From the sequence record MZ311863.1: a DNA stretch of 64,000 nt; one strand, given 5' to 3'. A model generated the notes under the pieces. That model was not told the origin of the DNA and ran no database searches. It saw nothing but the letters and a program-made list of their open reading frames with translations. Origin of the DNA: Escherichia phage vB_EcoM_LNA1. Below are positions 1 through 63,521 of this stretch, piece by piece. Every line of letters starts with the position of its first letter. The stretch's first letter is position 1. The translations under genes were made by a program, and so were the position numbers.

Positions 1-1602
1 ATGGACTTAAATGCTGTTAAGCAGAAGCGAGTGGAAGATGTTAGGAAAGTCCTAGCTGGAGAGTTGGGGCTTTCTGATGAAGTAAAAGAAATTATCAAAT
101 CATTCGGTAAAGACCCCTCTAAATTCCTTCCAACTCAAATTCTGACTTTATTAAGATACACACCAGACCAAGTTCGCCTTATCTTTAAATTGATGACTGA
201 TAAGAACTATGTAGCCCCTCAGCCGGGTTCTCAAGAGGTCTTTTTAAACACTAATGCTGACTTGGTTCTCTATGGTGGTGCTGCTGGTGCTGGTAAGACT
301 GCCGCATTGTTAATGGACTCTTTAAGATTTATTGAAGACCCTAACTATAATGCTGTATATTTCCGTCGAAATACAACACAGTTACAAGGTGGTTTATGGC
401 CTGCTGCAAAGAAACTATTTGGTAAGTTTGGTGGGATTCCTCACGAGCAGAAAATGACTATCACATTCCCTTCTGGGGCGACTATCAAGTTTACCTACCT
501 AGAACTTGAAAAGCACGCTGAAGGTCATCAGGGTATTGAATACTCAGCTATTTACTTTGACGAAGGTACACACTTCTCTGCTTCACAGATTTCATACCTA
601 CAAACCCGTCTACGTTCTGGTGCTGAAGGTGATTCATACATGAAGATTTCCATGAACCCAGACAGAGACCACTTTATTTATGATTGGGTGGAGCCATTCT
701 TAGATGAAGAAGGTTATCCAGACCCTGAGAAGTGTGGTCGTATTCGTTGGTATGTTATGAATGATGGTGTGATGGTTTCTGATTGGGAAAGAGACAAGAT
801 TCTGGAAATGTTCCCTCTTGAGATTCCTCAGACATACACCTTCATCTCTGGTACGATTGATGATAACCCAATTCTTGACTTCTTAGAACCTAAATATCGT
901 GGTAAGTTGGAAAACAACACGCCTGTAAACGTTGCAAGACTTCGTTTTGGTAACTGGAAGGCTCGTGCAGAAGGTTCAAACTATTGGCAAAGACAATGGT
1001 GTGAAATTGTTGATTCACTCCCAGAGGATGTGTTTGATGTCAGAGCATGGGACTTAGCAGCAACTTTACCATCTGAAATTAACCCTAACCCAGACTGGAC
1101 AGCGGGTGTTAAGATGGGTAAATCTAAAAAAGACGGTTGCTATTATATCATTGATGTAGTAAGATTTAGAGATAGACCCTCTGGAGTCGAAACACAAATT
1201 AATTTGACTGCTGAAAGTGACGGTAAGCGAACTGGTATTTTTATCCCTCAAGACCCAGGCGCTGCTGGTAAATCCTATGCAACATCCCTCATCAGGAAAC
1301 TTGCCGAGAAAGGTTATCGCGCAAGAGCTAAACCAACAAATAAAGATAAAGTTACCCGCTTTGCGGGATTTTCTGCTGCTTCTGAAGCTGGACTTGTAAA
1401 AGTCTTGAGAGGCAGTTGGAACGAAGCTTACTTTCAAGAACTTGAAGGCTTTTGTGGTGATGGCAAAACTAAAGATGACCAAGTGGATGCTACCAGTGAT
1501 GCTTTCAACAGTCTTAACGAAGTTAAATTATTCAAGCCACCATCAATGGGTGCTCACACAGACTTAGTGAGAGGAAATCCATATGAGGGGCTTAGACGTT
1601 GA
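1..1602 (+). CDS. terL: terminase large subunit
   Basis: 533-aa ORF with Walker A-like LVLYGGAAGAGKT near N-terminus; first gene of the head module; may be 5'-truncated by window edge. Confidence 0.8.
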   Translation: MDLNAVKQKRVEDVRKVLAGELGLSDEVKEIIKSFGKDPSKFLPTQILTLLRYTPDQVRLIFKLMTDKNYVAPQPGSQEVFLNTNADLVLYGGAAGAGKTAALLMDSLRFIEDPNYNAVYFRRNTTQLQGGLWPAAKKLFGKFGGIPHEQKMTITFPSGATIKFTYLELEKHAEGHQGIEYSAIYFDEGTHFSASQISYLQTRLRSGAEGDSYMKISMNPDRDHFIYDWVEPFLDEEGYPDPEKCGRIRWYVMNDGVMVSDWERDKILEMFPLEIPQTYTFISGTIDDNPILDFLEPKYRGKLENNTPVNVARLRFGNWKARAEGSNYWQRQWCEIVDSLPEDVFDVRAWDLAATLPSEINPNPDWTAGVKMGKSKKDGCYYIIDVVRFRDRPSGVETQINLTAESDGKRTGIFIPQDPGAAGKSYATSLIRKLAEKGYRARAKPTNKDKVTRFAGFSAASEAGLVKVLRGSWNEAYFQELEGFCGDGKTKDDQVDATSDAFNSLNEVKLFKPPSMGAHTDLVRGNPYEGLRR

Positions 1603-1609
1603 TAGCTAG

Positions 1610-3085
1610 GTGAGAAGAATGGCAGATATTACAGAAACACAAGAAAGCTTACCACCATTTAGAATGGGTGAAGTAGGTTCTTTGGGTCTGAAGGTTAAGA
1701 ATGGAAGAATCTATGAAGAACCTCGTCAGGCACTAAGGTTCCCCGAAAGTATTAAAACTTTCCAATTAATGATGCGTGACCCTGCTGTAGCAGCATCTGT
1801 AAATATTATTAAGATGTTTGTCAGAAAAGTCAACTGGAGATTCGTACCTCCAAAGGGAAAAGAGCAAGACCCTAAAATGCTTGAAAGAGCAGACTTCTTT
1901 AATTCTTTAATGGATGACATGGAGCATGATTGGGCAGATTTTATTAACTCTGTAATGTCATTCTGCACTTATGGGTTCTGTGTTAATGAAAAGGTTTATA
2001 AGAAACGTCAGGGTAAGAAAGGAAAGTACCAGTCAAAATTTGATGATGGTCTGATTGGATGGGCTAAGTTACCAATCAGAAACCAATCAACGCTTGATAA
2101 GTGGTATTTTGACGAAGACTTTAGAAAAGTTACAGGTGTTAGGCAGAATCTGAGAAATGTTTCACATATTGCTGGAGCAATTAATCTTGGAGAAAGACCG
2201 CTAACAAGAAAACTGCCACGAGCTAAATTCATGCTGTTTAAGTATGATGATGAATATGGAAACCCAGAAGGTCGTTCACCATTACTTAATGCCTATGTAC
2301 CGTGGAAGTATAAAGTCCAGATTGAAGAGTACGAAGCTGTTGGTGTTTCAAGAGACTTGGTAGGTATGCCAAAGATTGGTTTACCACCAGATTATCTGGA
2401 TGAAAATGCAGAACCTGAAAAGAAAGCTTTCGTACAATACTGCAAAACTGTTGTTAATGATATGATTGCTAATGACAGAGCAGGTTTAATCTGGCCTAGA
2501 TATATCGACCCAGATACTAAAGAGGATATTTTTGAGTTCTCATTAGTTTCTAGACAGGGTGCTAAAGCATACGATACAGGTTCTATTATTGACAGATATT
2601 CCAAGCAGATTATGATGGCATTTATGTCAGATGTTCTTGCTATGGGTCAGTCAAAATATGGTTCATTCTCTCTTGCAGATTCTAAGACAAGCTTACTAGC
2701 AATGTCAGTAGATATTCTGCTGAAGCAAATTAAGAACGTAATTAACCGTGATTTAGTTGCACAGACTTATGCTCTTAATATGTGGGATGATGAAGAACAT
2801 GTACAAATCACATATGATGATATCGAAACCCCAGACCTTGAAGTAATTGGTTCTTATATTCAGAAGACTGTTGCAGTAGGTGCTTTGGAAGTTGACAAAG
2901 AGCTATCTAACAAGCTTAGAGAGCATATTGGTCTTCCTCCTGCTAATGAGTCTCAGCCAGTATCTGAAAAGCTTTCTCCAAATAGCCAAAGCCGTTCAGG
3001 AGATGGTTATAAGACCGCTGGAGAAGGTACTGCAAAGACACCTTCAGCGAAAGACCCAAGCACAGCAAATAAGGCAAATAAATAA
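1610..3085 (+). CDS. portal protein (putative)
   Basis: 491-aa ORF directly after TerL, before protease/capsid genes; call by size and synteny only. Confidence 0.6.
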   Translation: MRRMADITETQESLPPFRMGEVGSLGLKVKNGRIYEEPRQALRFPESIKTFQLMMRDPAVAASVNIIKMFVRKVNWRFVPPKGKEQDPKMLERADFFNSLMDDMEHDWADFINSVMSFCTYGFCVNEKVYKKRQGKKGKYQSKFDDGLIGWAKLPIRNQSTLDKWYFDEDFRKVTGVRQNLRNVSHIAGAINLGERPLTRKLPRAKFMLFKYDDEYGNPEGRSPLLNAYVPWKYKVQIEEYEAVGVSRDLVGMPKIGLPPDYLDENAEPEKKAFVQYCKTVVNDMIANDRAGLIWPRYIDPDTKEDIFEFSLVSRQGAKAYDTGSIIDRYSKQIMMAFMSDVLAMGQSKYGSFSLADSKTSLLAMSVDILLKQIKNVINRDLVAQTYALNMWDDEEHVQITYDDIETPDLEVIGSYIQKTVAVGALEVDKELSNKLREHIGLPPANESQPVSEKLSPNSQSRSGDGYKTAGEGTAKTPSAKDPSTANKANK

Positions 3086-3585
3086 TGGCTGAAGTTATCT
3101 CTATTTCAAATGCTACACGAGTGCATTCGTATAGAGGTGTTCTTATTATCACTGACAAATTATCTGTAGAGGCTGGCTCAAGGGTTAGCCTTTCAGGTTA
3201 TGTAAGTGATGGTGGAGCCTCTGACGTTTTCACTATTTGCAGGTTACTTGATGCTCCAATGAGTGGAAAACCGTTTATTTCAGGAAATTGTAGTGAAATT
3301 GTTAAAATTCCATTTGACAGTTCATGCCTTTTGGGTGTAAAGTTATATAACTGCGAGAATAAACGTATCAATGTTAATAGCATTGAAGCCGCTTTCATTA
3401 CCCTCGACACTGCATTTCAATCTCCAATGACAGTTAATAAAGAAACAAACAGACTTGAATACATTTTTTCACAAAATGATTACAAAGTACTTGTCAAAGG
3501 CAAAGTTTATGATATGATTGTAAATGTGGTAGATGAATCTGGTAACCATTCAACAGTCCTTAAACAAAAAGTAAGGTTTAATTAA
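3085..3585 (+). CDS. hypothetical head-module protein
   Basis: 166-aa ORF, start overlaps portal stop (ATGA coupling). Confidence 0.3.
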   Translation: MAEVISISNATRVHSYRGVLIITDKLSVEAGSRVSLSGYVSDGGASDVFTICRLLDAPMSGKPFISGNCSEIVKIPFDSSCLLGVKLYNCENKRINVNSIEAAFITLDTAFQSPMTVNKETNRLEYIFSQNDYKVLVKGKVYDMIVNVVDESGNHSTVLKQKVRFN

Positions 3586-3917
3586 TGGGAACATTAACTA
3601 TTGATGGTAAGAATAAAATCCTCGCCACGCTAACCCCAACGACTATTATTTTACACAATGTAGACCCAACGGCAGACCCTACAGCAAATAAGGTTACTCA
3701 GCCAGTGGCTATTTATTTTTCTGAACCGGATAATGGCTTAATTGCCTCAGAAGACACAGTTAATATTACTGTCCCAGCTTCTGCAACGGTCTCACACTAT
3801 AGCTTGTGGGATGCTAACGATAAATGCGTGGCAACTGGTGCTCTTAGCAAACCTCAATTCTTTGCTGAAGAAGGTATCTATGTTATCTCTTCAGTCTCTG
3901 TAGATTTAAACAAATAG
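3585..3917 (+). CDS. hypothetical head-module protein
   Basis: 110-aa ORF translationally coupled to upstream gene. Confidence 0.3.
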   Translation: MGTLTIDGKNKILATLTPTTIILHNVDPTADPTANKVTQPVAIYFSEPDNGLIASEDTVNITVPASATVSHYSLWDANDKCVATGALSKPQFFAEEGIYVISSVSVDLNK

Positions 3918-3928
3918 GGTGAGTAAAA

Positions 3929-5275
3929 ATGAGTTCGAATATCTTCAGACTTGCTGATAGATTATTCAACCAACCTTTGCTAGCCACTGAATCATTAGCT
4001 CACTCAGCAGCAACTTATGTGAATAACAGATTGCTGGGTGATGTCCAAGCAGCAGTAAACTTTGATAAACCCAAAGGTGAAGCAAGAAGTCTTTTAAAAG
4101 TGAAAGATGACATTGCTATTATCCCTATTATGGGTGGTTTAACCCATCGCATGACATTCATTGATGCCATGTGTACAGGTGGATTAAGCTCTTATGAAGG
4201 TTTGCGTAGAGGCTTTGACGAAGCTTTAGCAGATGAGTCAATCAAGACTATTGTTCTGCACATCGATTCTGGTGGTGGTGAAGCTTCAGGTTGCTTTGAA
4301 TTAGCACGTCACATTATGGCTTCAAGAGGCCAAAAGAAAATTATTGCTTATGTAGATGAGTTCGCTTGTTCCGCTGCATACGCTCTTGCATCTTCTGCTG
4401 AAGAAATTATTGCATCACCAGATGCAGATGTTGGTTCTATTGGTGTAATTATGGTTCATCAGGAATTAACTAAAGCATTTGAAAAGAATGGCGTGACAAT
4501 TAACGTCATCAAAGCTGGTGAGTTTAAAGGTATGGGTTCACCATTCCAAGCACTCTCAGAAGAAAGCAAAGAAAGACTTCAAAAGAGAATTAATGATACC
4601 TACGCAACCTTTACAGGTTTTGTAGCCGAATCTCGTAATCTCTCTGAAGAAGCTGTAAAGAATACTGAGGCGAATGTTTATTCTGCTCAGGAAGCTCTTG
4701 AACTTGGTTTAATTAACTCAATCATGTCTCAAGATGATTTCTTAAATTACTTACAAGGTTCTGAAGAGGCTCCTGTAAGTTTAAACGTTAACAATTCAGG
4801 TGAAGAAATGACTGAACAAGAAAAGCAAGAACTAGAAGCTTTGCGTCTTCAGGTTGCTCAAATGAAAGCTAAAGAACAGGAAGCTGCTTTGTCAGATTTG
4901 ACTAATAAGATTTCTGCTTCTGCTGAAGCTTTTGGATTTGATGCAAAAGAAGCTGCAACGACTATTTTAGGTGCTGGTCTTGATAACCCTCTGAGTGTTC
5001 TGTTTATGAATGCTCTGGAAGGTGCTAACCAGAAACTTAATGAAACTATCGCGTCCCATGCTTCTGCAATGGAAGAAAAAGAATCAGAAATTACCAAGCT
5101 GAAAGAAACTGCTGGTGCTGTTCTTGAACATTCCAACGCTATGGAAGAAATGGGTAATGACGGCGAAGCTGATTTGGTTGAAGAAGAAAAAGAACCAGCT
5201 AAGAATGCTTCCGAAGACACCGCTGAACAACGCAAACTGGCTCTCCAGAATGCTCTAAAATCTCTTATCAAATAA
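3929..5275 (+). CDS. prohead protease (S49/ClpP-like) with C-terminal scaffold-like coiled-coil domain
   Basis: N-terminal two thirds resemble S49/SppA-ClpP fold proteases (IDSGGGE, GSIGVIMVHQ); C-terminal third is Ala/Glu/Lys-rich coiled coil; lambda C/Nu3-like position. Confidence 0.65.
   Translation: MSSNIFRLADRLFNQPLLATESLAHSAATYVNNRLLGDVQAAVNFDKPKGEARSLLKVKDDIAIIPIMGGLTHRMTFIDAMCTGGLSSYEGLRRGFDEALADESIKTIVLHIDSGGGEASGCFELARHIMASRGQKKIIAYVDEFACSAAYALASSAEEIIASPDADVGSIGVIMVHQELTKAFEKNGVTINVIKAGEFKGMGSPFQALSEESKERLQKRINDTYATFTGFVAESRNLSEEAVKNTEANVYSAQEALELGLINSIMSQDDFLNYLQGSEEAPVSLNVNNSGEEMTEQEKQELEALRLQVAQMKAKEQEAALSDLTNKISASAEAFGFDAKEAATTILGAGLDNPLSVLFMNALEGANQKLNETIASHASAMEEKESEITKLKETAGAVLEHSNAMEEMGNDGEADLVEEEKEPAKNASEDTAEQRKLALQNALKSLIK
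4808..5275 (+). CDS. possible nested in-frame scaffold protein (Nu3-like internal start)
   Basis: In-frame ATG at 4808 preceded by AGGTGA Shine-Dalgarno 5 nt upstream; downstream region is coiled-coil scaffold-like. Confidence 0.3.
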   Translation: MTEQEKQELEALRLQVAQMKAKEQEAALSDLTNKISASAEAFGFDAKEAATTILGAGLDNPLSVLFMNALEGANQKLNETIASHASAMEEKESEITKLKETAGAVLEHSNAMEEMGNDGEADLVEEEKEPAKNASEDTAEQRKLALQNALKSLIK

Positions 5276-5697: not shown

Positions 5698-6804
5698 ATG
5701 TTGACTAATTCTGAAAAAAGCAGATTTTTCCTTGCTGACCTGACTGGTGAAGTCCAGTCTATCCCAAATACTTATGGGTATATTTCCAACTTAGGTCTGT
5801 TCCGTTCAGCACCAATCACCCAAACTACTTTCCTGATGGACTTGACTGATTGGGATGTTAGCTTGCTTGATGCGGTAGACCGTGATAGCCGTAAAGCAGA
5901 GACTAGCGCACCTGAGCGTGTTCGTCAAATCAGCTTCCCAATGATGTACTTCAAAGAAGTTGAAAGCATTACTCCTGATGAGATTCAGGGTGTACGTCAG
6001 CCAGGAACTGCAAACGAACTGACTACTGAAGCTGTAGTACGTGCTAAGAAGCTGATGAAGATTCGTACCAAGTTCGATATTACTCGTGAGTTCCTGTTTA
6101 TGCAAGCTCTGAAGGGTAAAGTTGTTGATGCTCGCGGTACTCTGTACGCTGACCTGTACAAGCAGTTCGACGTTGAGAAGAAGACTATTTACTTCGACCT
6201 TGACAACCCTAATGCTGACATCGACGCTTCTATCGAAGAACTGCGTATGCACATGGAAGACGAAGCTAAGACTGGCACTGTAATCAACGGTGAAGAAATT
6301 CACGTAGTTGTTGACCGTGTATTCTTCAGCAAACTGACCAAGCATCCTAAGATTCGTGACGCTTATCTTGCACAGCAGACTCCACTGGCTTGGCAACAGA
6401 TTACTGGTTCTCTGAGAACTGGTGGTACTGACGGCGTTCAGGCTCACATGAACACTTTCTACTACGGTGGTGTTAAGTTTGTCCAGTACAACGGTAAGTT
6501 CAAAGACAAGCGTGGTAAGGTTCATACTCTGGTGAGTATTGATAGTGTAGCAGCAACTGTTGGTGTAGGACATGCTTTCCCTAACGTTTCTATGCTGGGT
6601 GAAGCAAACAACATCTTCGAAGTGGCATATGGCCCATGTCCTAAGATGGGTTATGCGAATACACTTGGTCAGGAACTATACGTATTCGAATACGAAAAAG
6701 ACCGTGACGAAGGTATCGACTTTGAAGCTCACTCTTACATGCTGCCATACTGTACTCGTCCTCAGTTGCTGGTAGATGTTCGTTCTGACGCTAAACCAAA
6801 CTAA
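5698..6804 (+). CDS. major capsid protein (putative)
   Basis: 368-aa ORF after protease and decoration genes; codon usage typical of highly expressed genes (ctg, cgt, gct, aaa rich); strong SD. Confidence 0.65.
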   Translation: MLTNSEKSRFFLADLTGEVQSIPNTYGYISNLGLFRSAPITQTTFLMDLTDWDVSLLDAVDRDSRKAETSAPERVRQISFPMMYFKEVESITPDEIQGVRQPGTANELTTEAVVRAKKLMKIRTKFDITREFLFMQALKGKVVDARGTLYADLYKQFDVEKKTIYFDLDNPNADIDASIEELRMHMEDEAKTGTVINGEEIHVVVDRVFFSKLTKHPKIRDAYLAQQTPLAWQQITGSLRTGGTDGVQAHMNTFYYGGVKFVQYNGKFKDKRGKVHTLVSIDSVAATVGVGHAFPNVSMLGEANNIFEVAYGPCPKMGYANTLGQELYVFEYEKDRDEGIDFEAHSYMLPYCTRPQLLVDVRSDAKPN

Positions 6805-55292: not shown

Positions 55293-55313
55293 GGCTCCTA
55301 CGGGAGCCTTTTT
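55293..55313 (+). terminator. rho-independent terminator
   Basis: GGCTCC-TACG-GGAGCC hairpin then TTTTT. Confidence 0.65.
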
Positions 55314-59408: not shown

Positions 59409-59423
59409 TAAGTAATTTCTTAA

Positions 59424-59447
59424 AAGGCTGCTTCGGCGGCCTTTTTT
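59424..59447 (+). terminator. rho-independent terminator
   Basis: GGCTGC-TTCG-GCGGCC hairpin (one U.G) then TTTTTT. Confidence 0.6.
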
Positions 59448-59508
59448 ATTTGTATTTTGTGCAGAGTGCTGTATAATTGTTGTCACGATAAACTAAACAG
59501 GAGAACCA

Positions 59509-60057: not shown

Positions 60058-60730
60058 CGAAGTGCTGTGTCATGCTTATGACTTACATCCCCATGAATTA
60101 GGTATTGATACTGACATATGGACTCCAGAGCAGTGTAGAGACTTTGAAGATACTGCAAGGGAGGTTGTATGCTCACTTGAAGAGTTCCACACACCGGAGC
60201 CAATTGTGAATGCTGTCGATAAAGAGACTGGGAAAGCCATAGGTGTAAGACGTGATAGCCTAGTCATAGTCAATAAAGACCTTGTAGAGAAAGGAAATCT
60301 TATCCTAGCAGATATTGATGGTGTTCTAACATATTTTAATCACGAAGCTTACTCAGCAGAGTTGACTGATGGGTCATTTTCACAGTACACCAACTTACTT
60401 GATGCTGTAAGAGCAAAACCAACATATGTTTTCCACATCATTGATGCAATTGCAAATCATGCAGCAGTTGGGTTCTTGACAGCAAGAGGTGAGACTCAGA
60501 GAATACCTACTGAGATGTTTTTAAGACACAATATAGAACATGATTACTTGCTTTTTATGCGTGGCTTTGGAACAAATTCTCTAAGTGCAGAAAGTTTAAA
60601 GGTTAGGATGATTCAGTCTTGCATTCTTCCTTATTTTAATATAGTATGCTTTATAGAAGATACAGAGAAGAATGTGCAGAAGGTGAACAGAATCCTTCCA
60701 CACATCAAAACCATGTTAGTTAAACATTGA
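60035..60730 (+). CDS. HAD-like phosphatase (putative)
   Basis: HAD motif I-like LILADIDGVLT; 231 aa; weak. Confidence 0.3.
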   Translation: MKKLRKFDEVLCHAYDLHPHELGIDTDIWTPEQCRDFEDTAREVVCSLEEFHTPEPIVNAVDKETGKAIGVRRDSLVIVNKDLVEKGNLILADIDGVLTYFNHEAYSAELTDGSFSQYTNLLDAVRAKPTYVFHIIDAIANHAAVGFLTARGETQRIPTEMFLRHNIEHDYLLFMRGFGTNSLSAESLKVRMIQSCILPYFNIVCFIEDTEKNVQKVNRILPHIKTMLVKH

Positions 60731-60740
60731 GAGAAAACTT

Positions 60741-61205
60741 ATGAACAATATCATTACGGTAGCACTGGACGTTACGGCAAACAAATCTGAAGTAGTTCGT
60801 AACATTATCAAGAACAACTTTGAGGGTAAAATCTTCCGTGCTGTCAACGTAAAAGCAGATGGTAACATTCGAGAGTATCGCGCTCTTTTGAATGTTAAGA
60901 AACACGTAAAAGGTTCTGGCTCAACGACAGCACACAAAGAAAACCTGATGACTATCTATGATATGGGGATGGCTTCAGAATTAGGTGCTGAAGGTATTGT
61001 TAAAGAAGGTGCTCCGTATCGCTCTTTCAATCTGGAAACTGCTCTCATGCTTTCCTTTACAAGTGGTTCTAAAACAACTACTTATCTCTTTACTGATGCT
61101 GCAACGGTATCTGCTATCAAGGATAGCACCGTCAAAGCTGGGGTAGCTGCTGCTGCAAAAGCTTCTTCGATGGCTGCAAATGTCCTTGCTAAAGTCCTCG
61201 GTTAA
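60741..61205 (+). CDS. hypothetical protein
   Basis: 154-aa ORF. Confidence 0.35.
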   Translation: MNNIITVALDVTANKSEVVRNIIKNNFEGKIFRAVNVKADGNIREYRALLNVKKHVKGSGSTTAHKENLMTIYDMGMASELGAEGIVKEGAPYRSFNLETALMLSFTSGSKTTTYLFTDAATVSAIKDSTVKAGVAAAAKASSMAANVLAKVLG

Positions 61206-61216
61206 GGTTAAGATAC

Positions 61217-61238
61217 AGGCTCCTTCGGGAGCCTTTTT
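61217..61238 (+). terminator. rho-independent terminator
   Basis: GGCTCC-TTCG-GGAGCC hairpin then TTTTT. Confidence 0.7.
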
Positions 61239-61255
61239 AAATTCAAGGAGTATTA

Positions 61256-62140
61256 ATGAAACCAATGTTTAAGTATCTTGGTGGTAAAACAAGAATACTG
61301 AAAGAATATGAGCGTTTAGGTGTCTTTCCAGACAAATGTGAAAACTTCTATGACCTGTTTTCAGGTGGTGGTTCAGTAGCTATTTGGGCTTATAACAGAT
61401 ACCCAGAGGCAAAAGTGTTTATTAATGAGATAAATAAACATATTATAGGTCTTTACACAACTTTCAGAGATGACTATGAAAACTTCATGGAAGAATTTGA
61501 GTACCTGTCAAAAAGGTACTTAGCCTTACCTATGCAGGAAGAGTATGCCGTGAAAGGCCAGCGTCATAACCGTCTACGCTATAAAATGTATTACAGTGTA
61601 AGAGAGGAACTTCTTTTGCTTGGTGAAGAAGGAGCATATGACTACAGGTACTATGCCAGACAGTTTTTCCTTCAAAAACTAAGTTTTGGTGGTGTATGGC
61701 AGACTACTAAAGAGATGAAAGGTCACTATGCAACACCTTGCGGGTATTTGCTGGAAGAAGAGATTTTCTTCACAAAAACTAAGAAGTCACTGTCTGAGTT
61801 CTACAGTTTTATCACTGATGAGAGGGTGATACTTAGCAGTGAACCTTATAACAGGGTTGACATAAAACATGGAGAAGGCACAGTTATCTACTGTGACCCC
61901 CCGTATATCAACACCAACCAGAAATATGGTGCAAAGTTTGACATTGAGATGTCTGTAAAATTATGCGAAGATATGATTTCTTGGGGGGAGTTAGGCTCTA
62001 AAGTTTTGATGTCAAACTCTCAGTGGGATGGATGGGCAAACCTAATTCCTGAAAATTTTAACTTGACAGAGGTTAGCCATTCATACACAATACATGCACA
62101 GAGAAGCAAAGATATTAACGAAGTAATTATTCACAACTAA
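61256..62140 (+). CDS. dam: DNA adenine methyltransferase (Dam family)
   Basis: N-terminal YLGGK, AdoMet motif DLFSGGGSVA, catalytic DPPY; 294 aa. Confidence 0.8.
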   Translation: MKPMFKYLGGKTRILKEYERLGVFPDKCENFYDLFSGGGSVAIWAYNRYPEAKVFINEINKHIIGLYTTFRDDYENFMEEFEYLSKRYLALPMQEEYAVKGQRHNRLRYKMYYSVREELLLLGEEGAYDYRYYARQFFLQKLSFGGVWQTTKEMKGHYATPCGYLLEEEIFFTKTKKSLSEFYSFITDERVILSSEPYNRVDIKHGEGTVIYCDPPYINTNQKYGAKFDIEMSVKLCEDMISWGELGSKVLMSNSQWDGWANLIPENFNLTEVSHSYTIHAQRSKDINEVIIHN

Positions 62141-62151
62141 GGTATCAAGTT

Positions 62152-62964
62152 ATGGCAAACAGCATCAATGTAGCACTGAATGGCAAGGTTGTTAAAATTC
62201 ACACTAAGATTATCAGTGTCGAGGATTTTCTTAATGAAAAACGTTACAAAGAAAACCCTCGTCAACGAAATACACTTAAGCGTCTGAAAAGCAAACACCT
62301 TAATGGTGACGTATCACCAGACCAAACAGTAGTCCATGTGGCTAAGTTCGGGAGTTCACTGTTCATCATTGATGGGCACTCACGTAGAGAGGCATGGAAA
62401 GTTGGTAACCTGACACGACCAGAAAACTTGATTGCAGTTATATACCATGTGAACTCTATATTGGATGTCACAGATTTGTATACACATTTTGACTCTGAGT
62501 TAGCAAGAGAGAAGCCTTCAGAAGTTTATTACGGAAATATGAAGATGATTTCTTTCAACCCAGAGTCAGAACTGATGAAAGCATCTTGGGCAACTGCTAT
62601 TAAATATGTTGCTGCATACTACGGTGTACAACAGGTCTCTAACACTGAAACAGTTAAATATCTTAATGACTTTAAAAATGAGCTGGAACAAATTGATTCT
62701 CTTGAAGTACAGCTTAAAGGTGTAGTAAACGCAAAACGGAAATATTCTTCTGGGATTCGTGCAGCAATGTTAATTACACTACGCCTATATGGTGATGCTG
62801 CATTTTCCTTTTGGGAAGACTATAATGATTACTGTGAAGGTATGTCTAACAAATATGTTACAGAGGTATACCAACTGGCATTACAAGCTGGTCGCGGAGC
62901 ACAGGCTGATAAGTTGTTGATGAATCAAGCGATTTCACTTGTCAACTATTACAGTCAAGAATAA
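62152..62964 (+). CDS. ParB-like nuclease domain protein
   Basis: FIIDGHSRREAW resembles the ParB/sulfiredoxin DGxHR motif; 270 aa. Confidence 0.4.
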   Translation: MANSINVALNGKVVKIHTKIISVEDFLNEKRYKENPRQRNTLKRLKSKHLNGDVSPDQTVVHVAKFGSSLFIIDGHSRREAWKVGNLTRPENLIAVIYHVNSILDVTDLYTHFDSELAREKPSEVYYGNMKMISFNPESELMKASWATAIKYVAAYYGVQQVSNTETVKYLNDFKNELEQIDSLEVQLKGVVNAKRKYSSGIRAAMLITLRLYGDAAFSFWEDYNDYCEGMSNKYVTEVYQLALQAGRGAQADKLLMNQAISLVNYYSQE

Positions 62965-62969
62965 TACAC

Positions 62970-62991
62970 AGGCTCCTTCGGGAGCCTTTTT
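62970..62991 (+). terminator. rho-independent terminator
   Basis: GGCTCC-TTCG-GGAGCC hairpin then TTTTT (same sequence as at 61218). Confidence 0.7.
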
Positions 62992-63010
62992 CATTTCAGG
63001 AGATTGTTAA

Positions 63011-63358
63011 ATGACATTTAAAGAGTTCTGTCAAGCTACTTTCATAATTGTTTTCTTAGTTGGGGCAGGTGTCTGGGGAGGATACTCTTATAGAGACTAC
63101 CAAGTTGCTGAAGCTGAGCTAAATAATGAGAAACTGATAAGTGTTGCTAAAGATGCTTATCAGGAAGGTTTAGTCACACTCAGCACTAATTACAAAAATG
63201 ATTTGAAAGATGTGCTTGCTAAGAATAAGCATACAAAAGAGGTATTAACATATGAAAAAACTAAGCCAGAGTTTTATAATGTTTGTGTTACTGATAACTA
63301 TGTCAGGGTGTTCAACGAACAAAGTGAACAGTACATTCAAAAACTCCCAAGTAAGTGA
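63011..63358 (+). CDS. i-spanin-like protein (Rz-like)
   Basis: N-terminal TM segment (FIIVFLVGAGVWGGY) then coiled-coil periplasmic region; 115 aa; overlapped by lipoprotein ORF in another frame. Confidence 0.45.
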   Translation: MTFKEFCQATFIIVFLVGAGVWGGYSYRDYQVAEAELNNEKLISVAKDAYQEGLVTLSTNYKNDLKDVLAKNKHTKEVLTYEKTKPEFYNVCVTDNYVRVFNEQSEQYIQKLPSK

Positions 63359-63521
63359 GAGTGATAAGTACACTCAAGAAGAATCACGGTATATCATCAA
63401 AGGTAACACAGGCAGTGATGTAGCAGCAGCACTTGAGTTCTACCGTGACGGCTTTTACCAGTGTACAATTAAAGCTAATAACCTTATTGACATGATTTTA
63501 TTAGGAAATAAACAGCAATGA
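63252..63521 (+). CDS. o-spanin-like lipoprotein (Rz1-like)
   Basis: Signal peptide with lipobox-like ...LLITMSGC (Cys20); starts inside the i-spanin-like gene in a different frame. Confidence 0.45.
   Translation: MKKLSQSFIMFVLLITMSGCSTNKVNSTFKNSQVSESDKYTQEESRYIIKGNTGSDVAAALEFYRDGFYQCTIKANNLIDMILLGNKQQ

Follow-up and report, generated by a model that had tools for sequence, protein, structure and literature searches.

A terminator-bounded D12 methylase cassette in a Felixounavirus, with a ParB-fold partner protein and a probable non-GATC target

ParB-type folds have been described next to DNA-modifying enzymes in two phage settings. In phage and prophage ParB-methyltransferase fusions, an N-terminal PF02195 domain is joined to PF01555 or to another S-adenosylmethionine (SAM) methylase, and such folds bind nucleotides (PMC12704722). 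In the second setting, a ParB-like protein activates phage thymine dioxygenases (5mYOX), which comprise ParB-dependent and ParB-independent subclasses (PMC13229309). Here, we describe a related arrangement in Escherichia phage vB_EcoM_LNA1 (MZ311863.1), analysed over a stretch of 64 kb (positions 1-64000, the window), which is a segment of a Felixounavirus (Felix O1-like, Ounavirinae) genome. A gene for a D12-class (alpha-group) N6-adenine DNA methylase (61256..62140, + strand, 294 aa) is followed by a co-oriented gene (62152..62964, + strand) for a 270-aa protein of an unnamed family (PHROG 2615), which we refer to as the partner. An earlier note, made from the letters alone, had placed both genes correctly and described them as a self-contained cassette of a Dam-type methylase and a ParB-like nuclease; its observation was confirmed, and its interpretation was supported in part. 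The explanation that we favour, with about even confidence, is that of an accessory DNA-modification module in which a non-GATC methylase is assisted by a ParB-fold helper, in effect the phage ParB-methylase fusions split into two genes. Four alternatives weighed below are less well supported. A literature search turned up no paper about this cassette or about methylation in Felixounaviruses.

As in the fusions, a predicted ParB/Srx-type nucleotide-binding fold is combined with an N6/N4 DNA methylase in a phage-enriched arrangement with a presumed anti-defence or DNA-modification role, and one family member, in cyanophage Syn19, adjoins a PF01555 methylase. In contrast to the fusions, the two parts are separate polypeptides, the ParB-fold part has no match to PF02195 or any other Pfam model, the methylase belongs to the D12 class and the partnership is facultative. 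A ParB fusion is not documented in the M.EcoGIX paper, which was not used as evidence. The partner also resembles the 5mYOX-associated ParB in being a stand-alone protein, with a predicted ParB fold, beside a post-replicative phage DNA-modifying enzyme that has some partner-free relatives. However, the enzyme is here a SAM methylase and there an iron- and 2-oxoglutarate-dependent dioxygenase, and the partner family is far more divergent than the 5mYOX-associated ParBs, which are recognisable homologues with a C-terminal dimerisation domain. Unlike DndB, DUF262 (the N-terminal domain of GmrSD and BrxU) and DpdB, the partner has no sequence match to these proteins and no attached nuclease domain, and its C-terminal helical domain is different.

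Assignment of the first gene to the Dam family of N6-adenine methylases, proposed in the earlier note from the motifs YLGGK (residues 7-11), FSGGG (35-39) and DPPY (214-217), held up, since all three motifs are present and PF02086 (D12 class) matches the protein end to end (residues 7-279, profile positions 1-253 of 253; E 3e-23, 83.2 bits against a cut-off of 22). The motifs follow the alpha-group order, with FSGGGS (35-40; motif I, SAM binding), a recognition hairpin (143-165) and DPPY (214-217; motif IV, catalytic), and they are kept across alleles and across the clade. The gene is under purifying selection, with a ratio of non-synonymous to synonymous divergence (dN/dS) of 0.11-0.13, and the motifs are intact in all alleles. 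Its clade is tight: a clade-profile search returned 13 clusters at 268-508 bits and a next score of 109, and the next phage relatives beyond it are at most 30% identical. With its distant solved relatives DpnM, T4 Dam and EcoDam (~23-28% identity), the methylase shares the D12/alpha architecture, both the FxGxG and the DPPY motif, and a recognition loop that forms a beta-hairpin and closes with a conserved Pro-x-Gly. Apart from its probable non-GATC specificity, it adds an ordinary new enzyme to a known class.

The recognition hairpin and the genome set the methylase apart from these three enzymes. In an alignment via DpnM, Q149 takes the place of EcoDam R124, Y164 that of R137 and G145 that of N120, whereas the equivalents of K9 and P134 (K6 and P161) are retained. 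EcoDam R124 reads the G:C of the fourth GATC base pair, and the R124A variant loses discrimination (PMC4417163). Across the 14 members of the clade, Gln at the R124 position and Tyr at the R137 position are invariant, and the hairpin reads SFGG(A/V)WQ...ATPxG in 14/14 aligned members (SFGGVWQTT...ATPCG in the window). The tetranucleotide GATC was observed 0 times in the window against ~210 expected from a second-order Markov model, and its absence is a published genus-wide trait (PMC5477317, PMC4690856). The next most depleted 4-nt palindromes in the window are CCGG (0.53), GGCC (0.55) and CTAG (0.61). The known hosts, namely E. coli, Salmonella and Shigella, are already Dam-positive. With no GATC substrate on the phage and hosts that already make Dam, we infer a non-GATC target, and a recognition hairpin unlike that of the GATC-specific Dam enzymes likewise makes it most likely that a non-GATC site is modified.

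These observations bear on an alternative in which the enzyme is a canonical Dam that modifies GATC in host DNA, with mismatch repair, replication and gene expression as examples of the host processes it could manipulate. A match to TIGR00571 'dam' (99 bits), the distant similarity to DpnM, T4 Dam and EcoDam and the retained K9 and P134 equivalents speak for such a role, but the TIGR00571 score lies under the cut-off of 114.85 (NF008152 gives 25 bits against a cut-off of 441), and the clade-wide replacement of both arginines, the Dam-positive hosts and the lack of a GATC substrate in the phage genome make it quite improbable. The earlier label 'Dam-type' thus applies to the D12 family and probably not to GATC specificity. 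The digestion with DpnI or MboI proposed with it would be uninformative on this methylase, since the window contains no GATC and the R124 equivalent is Gln. Allelic differences between methylases are scattered and lie outside the recognition hairpin, and a specificity switch among alleles, considered as a further possibility, was dropped as the hairpin is spared.

The second gene encodes a protein that is 'hypothetical' in every public source; PHROG 2615 has no assigned function, and we found no match in Pfam, NCBIfam or PADLOC. A word-indexed homologue search gave just two near-identical clusters, and we used instead an exhaustive search, which returned 496 representative relatives (E < 1e-10 for 160). 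ParB Pfam models, PF02195 included, matched neither the window partner at E<=0.1 nor any of 118 aligned homologues at E<=0.01, and a profile search of the PDB was empty. When the family profile was compared by hhalign with Spo0J, the probability was 0.3%, and the comparison with S-RIM2 SWTG_00031, a weak DUF6551 match, gave nothing, leaving no sequence-level link to ParB or DUF6551. The only phmmer matches in the PDB were de novo TIM barrels, which we judged spurious.

An AlphaFold model built from the 118-homologue alignment reached a predicted local distance difference test score (pLDDT) of 96.1 and a predicted template-modelling score of 0.85; a single-sequence model (pLDDT 38) was discarded. 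The model contains an N-terminal ParB/Srx-like fold at about residues 30-115, followed by an all-helical C-terminal domain (120-270). In a Foldseek search of the PDB, its top matches were B. subtilis ParB-CDP (6sdk), M. xanthus ParB, PadC and Arabidopsis sulfiredoxin, and the matching viral structure models are annotated as DndB-like, GmrSD-N and ParB/Srx. The model thus supports placing the N-terminal domain, as a distant member, in the ParB/Srx fold superfamily.

The DGHSRR motif quoted in the earlier note is present (residues 74-79, nt 62371-62388), and the alignment that was suggested as a check on its arginine shows R78 to be invariant in the 118 homologues, with R39, D74, G75 and H76 near-invariant (D74, G75 and H76 at >=90%). 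Together with ENPRQR (34-39), the motif recalls Spo0J (NPYQPR and GERR, checked in the Spo0J sequence): the spacing from NPxQxR to G-x-x-R is 36 residues in the partner and 38 in Spo0J. From this spacing, mapped by eye, DGHSRR would correspond to Box II GxxR, the equivalent of Spo0J G77-R80. Purifying selection on the gene is very strong (dN/dS 0.01-0.02, with 62-64 synonymous against 3-6 non-synonymous differences). No ParA-like gene lies in the 6 kb around the cassette, and the partner does not fit the ParB of a ParABS partition system, which is marked by an adjacent ParA ATPase and a centromere-binding helix-turn-helix.

The presence of sulfiredoxin among the top structural matches raises the alternative that the partner is a SerK-, SbnI- or sulfiredoxin-like phosphotransferase whose substrate would be a small molecule, a protein or a DNA base, and which possibly elaborates the product of the methylase. 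However, no substrate-binding residues could be mapped and the cassette contains no additional hypermodification genes, and we give this explanation a very small probability. The name 'nuclease' given earlier to the partner is not supported: Pfam (its ParBc model included), NCBIfam and PADLOC yield no nuclease signature, the alignment shows no conserved His-Me or PD-(D/E)XK motif, and the only residues conserved across the family are the arginines of the putative ParB-type nucleotide pocket and the DGH. Nothing in the sequence supports nuclease activity of the partner.

Other members of the partner family vary in architecture. One metagenomic contig (locus positions 61-1902) carries two tandem ParB-fold-family paralogues of 275 and 317 aa, both with DGH[ST]RR. 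In Erwinia phage phiEa21-4, gp108 (locus positions 2599-3708) and the proteins of ~29 related Erwinia-phage records are 369-aa members with a 135-aa N-terminal extension; some proteins of this type are annotated 'putative helicase', and their genes lie close to those for ribonucleotide reductase, in a GATC-free locus that has no methylase in the vicinity.

In agreement with the earlier claim of a recurrent pairing, the partner family adjoins methylases in several unrelated phage groups. Three metagenomic partner homologues, with identities of 41%, 38% and 33%, are each directly adjacent to a D12 methylase 36-38% identical to that of the window, with the methylase upstream in one pair and downstream in two, and another Ounavirinae contig has, at the same site, a 74%-identical methylase with a 270-aa partner. 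BIS47 and Ro1, both Mydovirus phages, encode a family member (HMM E 4e-15) directly upstream of a D12 methylase with the same WQ-type hairpin (IWQ) as the window methylase. At a second Felixounavirus hot spot, a full-length partner paralogue (hhalign 99.6%) lies 3' of a methylase that resembles the gamma class, has IIDPCAGDG and NPPF motifs and matches PF02384 weakly. In cyanophage Syn19, the family member Syn19_155 follows the PF01555 methylase mentioned above. A family repeatedly paired with three methylase classes is a new variation on a known theme.

The second hot spot is the rIIB-lysin intergenic region, of which the window has the empty form (59409-59508, with a terminator at 59422-59445). 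GEP101, IME338 and ESCO56 have there a three-gene insert between two similar terminators (locus positions 1877-4044), encoding the gamma-class-like methylase (299 aa), the distant ParB-fold paralogue (279 aa) and a 77-aa ORF. In the Syn19 locus (1565-4032), three consecutive ORFs encode, in order, a protein annotated 'R.RsaI endonuclease', the PF01555 methylase and the family member; here and in the other cyanophage loci that we examined, GTAC shows about two-fold depletion. In Synechococcus phage S-N03 (locus positions 4047-5159), a gene for a WQ-hairpin D12 methylase is followed, two genes downstream, by one for a SAM lyase-family protein, so that an enzyme that consumes SAM is oddly paired with one that destroys it.

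Three observations weigh against a dedicated methylase-helper module. Phage ESCO56 has lost the partner but retains an intact methylase, for which the partner is thus not obligatory; three Ounavirinae-like contigs with clade methylases and several cyanophages with WQ-type methylases have no family member within 3-4 kb; and several members of the partner family are encoded amid replication and repair genes without a nearby methylase. The association is therefore recurrent but facultative. The idea that only GATC-free genomes tolerate the partner, based on the first-seen loci with methylase and partner all having 0 GATC and methylase-only loci having normal GATC, was dropped as a lineage effect, since the Mydovirus pairs lie in GATC-containing DNA.

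The same facultative pattern could mean that the two genes are independent passengers of one hot spot, the ParB-fold protein being a KorB- or DndB-like DNA-binding regulator or a DNA-metabolism factor unrelated to methylation. Either gene is found without the other, further family members sit among helicase, RecA, DNA polymerase and ribonucleotide reductase genes, the site is a general hot spot (occupied in IME338 by an unrelated 52-aa ORF), and recombination has occurred between methylase and partner in phage FGS030. Against this, adjacency survives ~60-70% sequence divergence of both genes and inversion of their order, separate pairings with three methylase classes exist in three phage groups, and in the window the genes are 11 nt apart without an intervening terminator. 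On balance, we regard independent carriage as unlikely.

Adjacency in either order also resembles the gene organisation of restriction-modification systems, and the pair could accordingly be one in function, with the ParB-fold protein cutting host or competitor DNA that lacks (or carries) the methylase mark, and the phage protected by its methylase or by missing sites. The asymmetry expected of such systems is seen, in that methylase-only derivatives exist while close partner homologues mostly occur with a methylase; the fold's historical Pfam name is 'ParB-like nuclease', and the Syn19 family member clusters with the ORF annotated R.RsaI. However, PD-(D/E)XK, HNH, GIY-YIG and PLD motifs are all missing from the partner, PADLOC and Pfam give no match, conservation across the family is limited to the predicted pocket arginines and DGH, and relatives at ~30% identity occur without any methylase. 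To our knowledge, no restriction endonuclease has a ParB-type fold as its catalytic domain. With both methylase-only and partner-only cases known, the distribution of the two genes is ambiguous in this respect, and we give a restriction role a low probability.

The cassette occupies a variable intergenic hot spot, with a conserved 154-aa gene on one side and the spanin genes on the other; the order of genes is rIIA, rIIB, putative lysin, polynucleotide kinase, the 154-aa gene, the cassette, i-spanin and o-spanin. Its left boundary is a 24-nt exact direct repeat, ACAGGCTCCTTCGGGAGCCTTTTT (61215..61238, + strand), which is the intrinsic terminator 3' of the 154-aa gene; its stem spans 61217-61234. 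The right copy (62968..62991, + strand) lies 1753 nt away and forms the other boundary, followed by the start of the i-spanin gene at 63011, with a ribosome-binding site before it. Identical flanking terminators had been noted before, and they are indeed exact: the core hairpin GGCTCCTTCGGGAGCC matches at 61218 and 62971, where shuffled sequences lead one to expect 0 matches, and both copies fold into a stem of 7 bp that is capped by a UUCG loop and followed by U5 (-13 kcal/mol). A third copy with one mismatch, GGCTCCTACGGGAGCC (55293-55308, -16.6 kcal/mol), lies ~545 nt upstream of the rIIA start, and one terminator design is thus reused by the phage. An Rfam scan detected nothing beyond sub-threshold terminator look-alikes.

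The methylase gene has a Shine-Dalgarno sequence, AAGGAG (61245..61250, + strand), read from the sequence 5 nt before its ATG. The left terminator ends 22 nt before this ATG, which leaves no room for a promoter, and expression of the cassette must therefore come by read-through from upstream. The description as a self-contained cassette is accordingly right as regards its optional presence, its bounding terminators, and a ribosome-binding site and terminator of its own, but not as regards a promoter. Like phage morons, the cassette is an optional element between two conserved genes, with its own terminator and a precise empty site in relatives; unlike them, it has no promoter of its own, and it is bounded by a duplicated 24-nt stretch of the resident terminator.

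The whole insert was found in 13 of the 257 phage records matching the region; the remaining records listed match the flanks only, over a span shorter by exactly the repeat spacing. In the empty-site phage humlepung, a single terminator joins what are in the window the left and right flanks of the cassette, and the empty sites checked are otherwise identical at the junction. Gain or loss could thus proceed by recombination between the two repeats. The deletion in ESCO56 corresponds to window positions 62154..62869 (+ strand; 716 bp, with TAT microhomology) and leaves the methylase intact together with the last 95 nt of the partner gene. Bases 60700-63400 of the window match Escherichia phage tootiki at 98.5%. 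Synonymous divergence among cassette alleles (dS ~0.5) is comparable to that of backbone genes, the GC content of the insert equals that of its flanks and the insert has 0 GATC, indicating that the cassette is an old resident of the lineage rather than a recent import. It is exchanged or lost through recombination. The cassette of Salmonella phage FGS030 (locus positions 1057-2765) is a mosaic, in which dS relative to the window is 0.59 for the methylase and 0.03-0.07 for the partner and flanks, placing a recombination breakpoint between the two genes. In phage IME338, the 52-aa ORF follows a single terminator at the cassette site (locus positions 6205-6363), and being unrelated to the cassette it identifies the site as a general insertion hot spot.

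Under the module explanation, read-through from the upstream operon would express both genes between the duplicated terminators, and the first gene product would carry out SAM-dependent N6-adenine methylation of a non-GATC site on phage DNA. Such methylation may blunt host restriction systems, to which Felixounaviruses would otherwise be sensitive; in the BASEL phage-collection study, the single Felixounavirus tested was 'remarkably sensitive' to several restriction-modification systems. Judging from the model, the partner probably binds a nucleotide triphosphate via a pocket formed by R39 and DGH-R78, and probably associates with DNA. By analogy with the known systems, it may help the methylase by loading, targeting or regulating it.

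A broader version, which we put forward only tentatively, is that phage adenine methylases share the partner family as a general cofactor that can be exchanged among them, a nucleotide-gated DNA clamp or loader. It would couple D12, gamma-like and PF01555 methylases to replicating or incoming phage DNA, altering their reach or specificity, and methylation would then be partner-dependent, as thymine oxidation is in ParB-dependent 5mYOX. ParB-fold proteins are emerging as nucleotide-gated switches beyond chromosome segregation, one of which activates a phage DNA dioxygenase, and the locus offers a natural, genetically tractable test of ParB-type logic for DNA methylases. Closely related cultivable E. 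coli phages are found in three states, with both genes (such as tootiki, MN850647, and JLBYU28), with the methylase only (ESCO56) or with neither (humlepung), and the coupling of methylase and partner is therefore directly testable. The analysis also flags a sizeable protein family that is invisible to Pfam and NCBIfam and under very strong purifying selection. Finally, the annotation 'Dam' is misleading in a GATC-free genome, which matters for forecasting the performance of therapeutic Felix O1-type phages against host restriction systems.

Near-identical copies of the cassette are also filed as 'Campylobacter phage A132/A126' (MG065664/MG065668), and proteins that match exactly are filed under Staphylococcus hyicus (WP_252560881/WP_252560882); these records most likely reflect Felixounavirus contamination or mislabelling.

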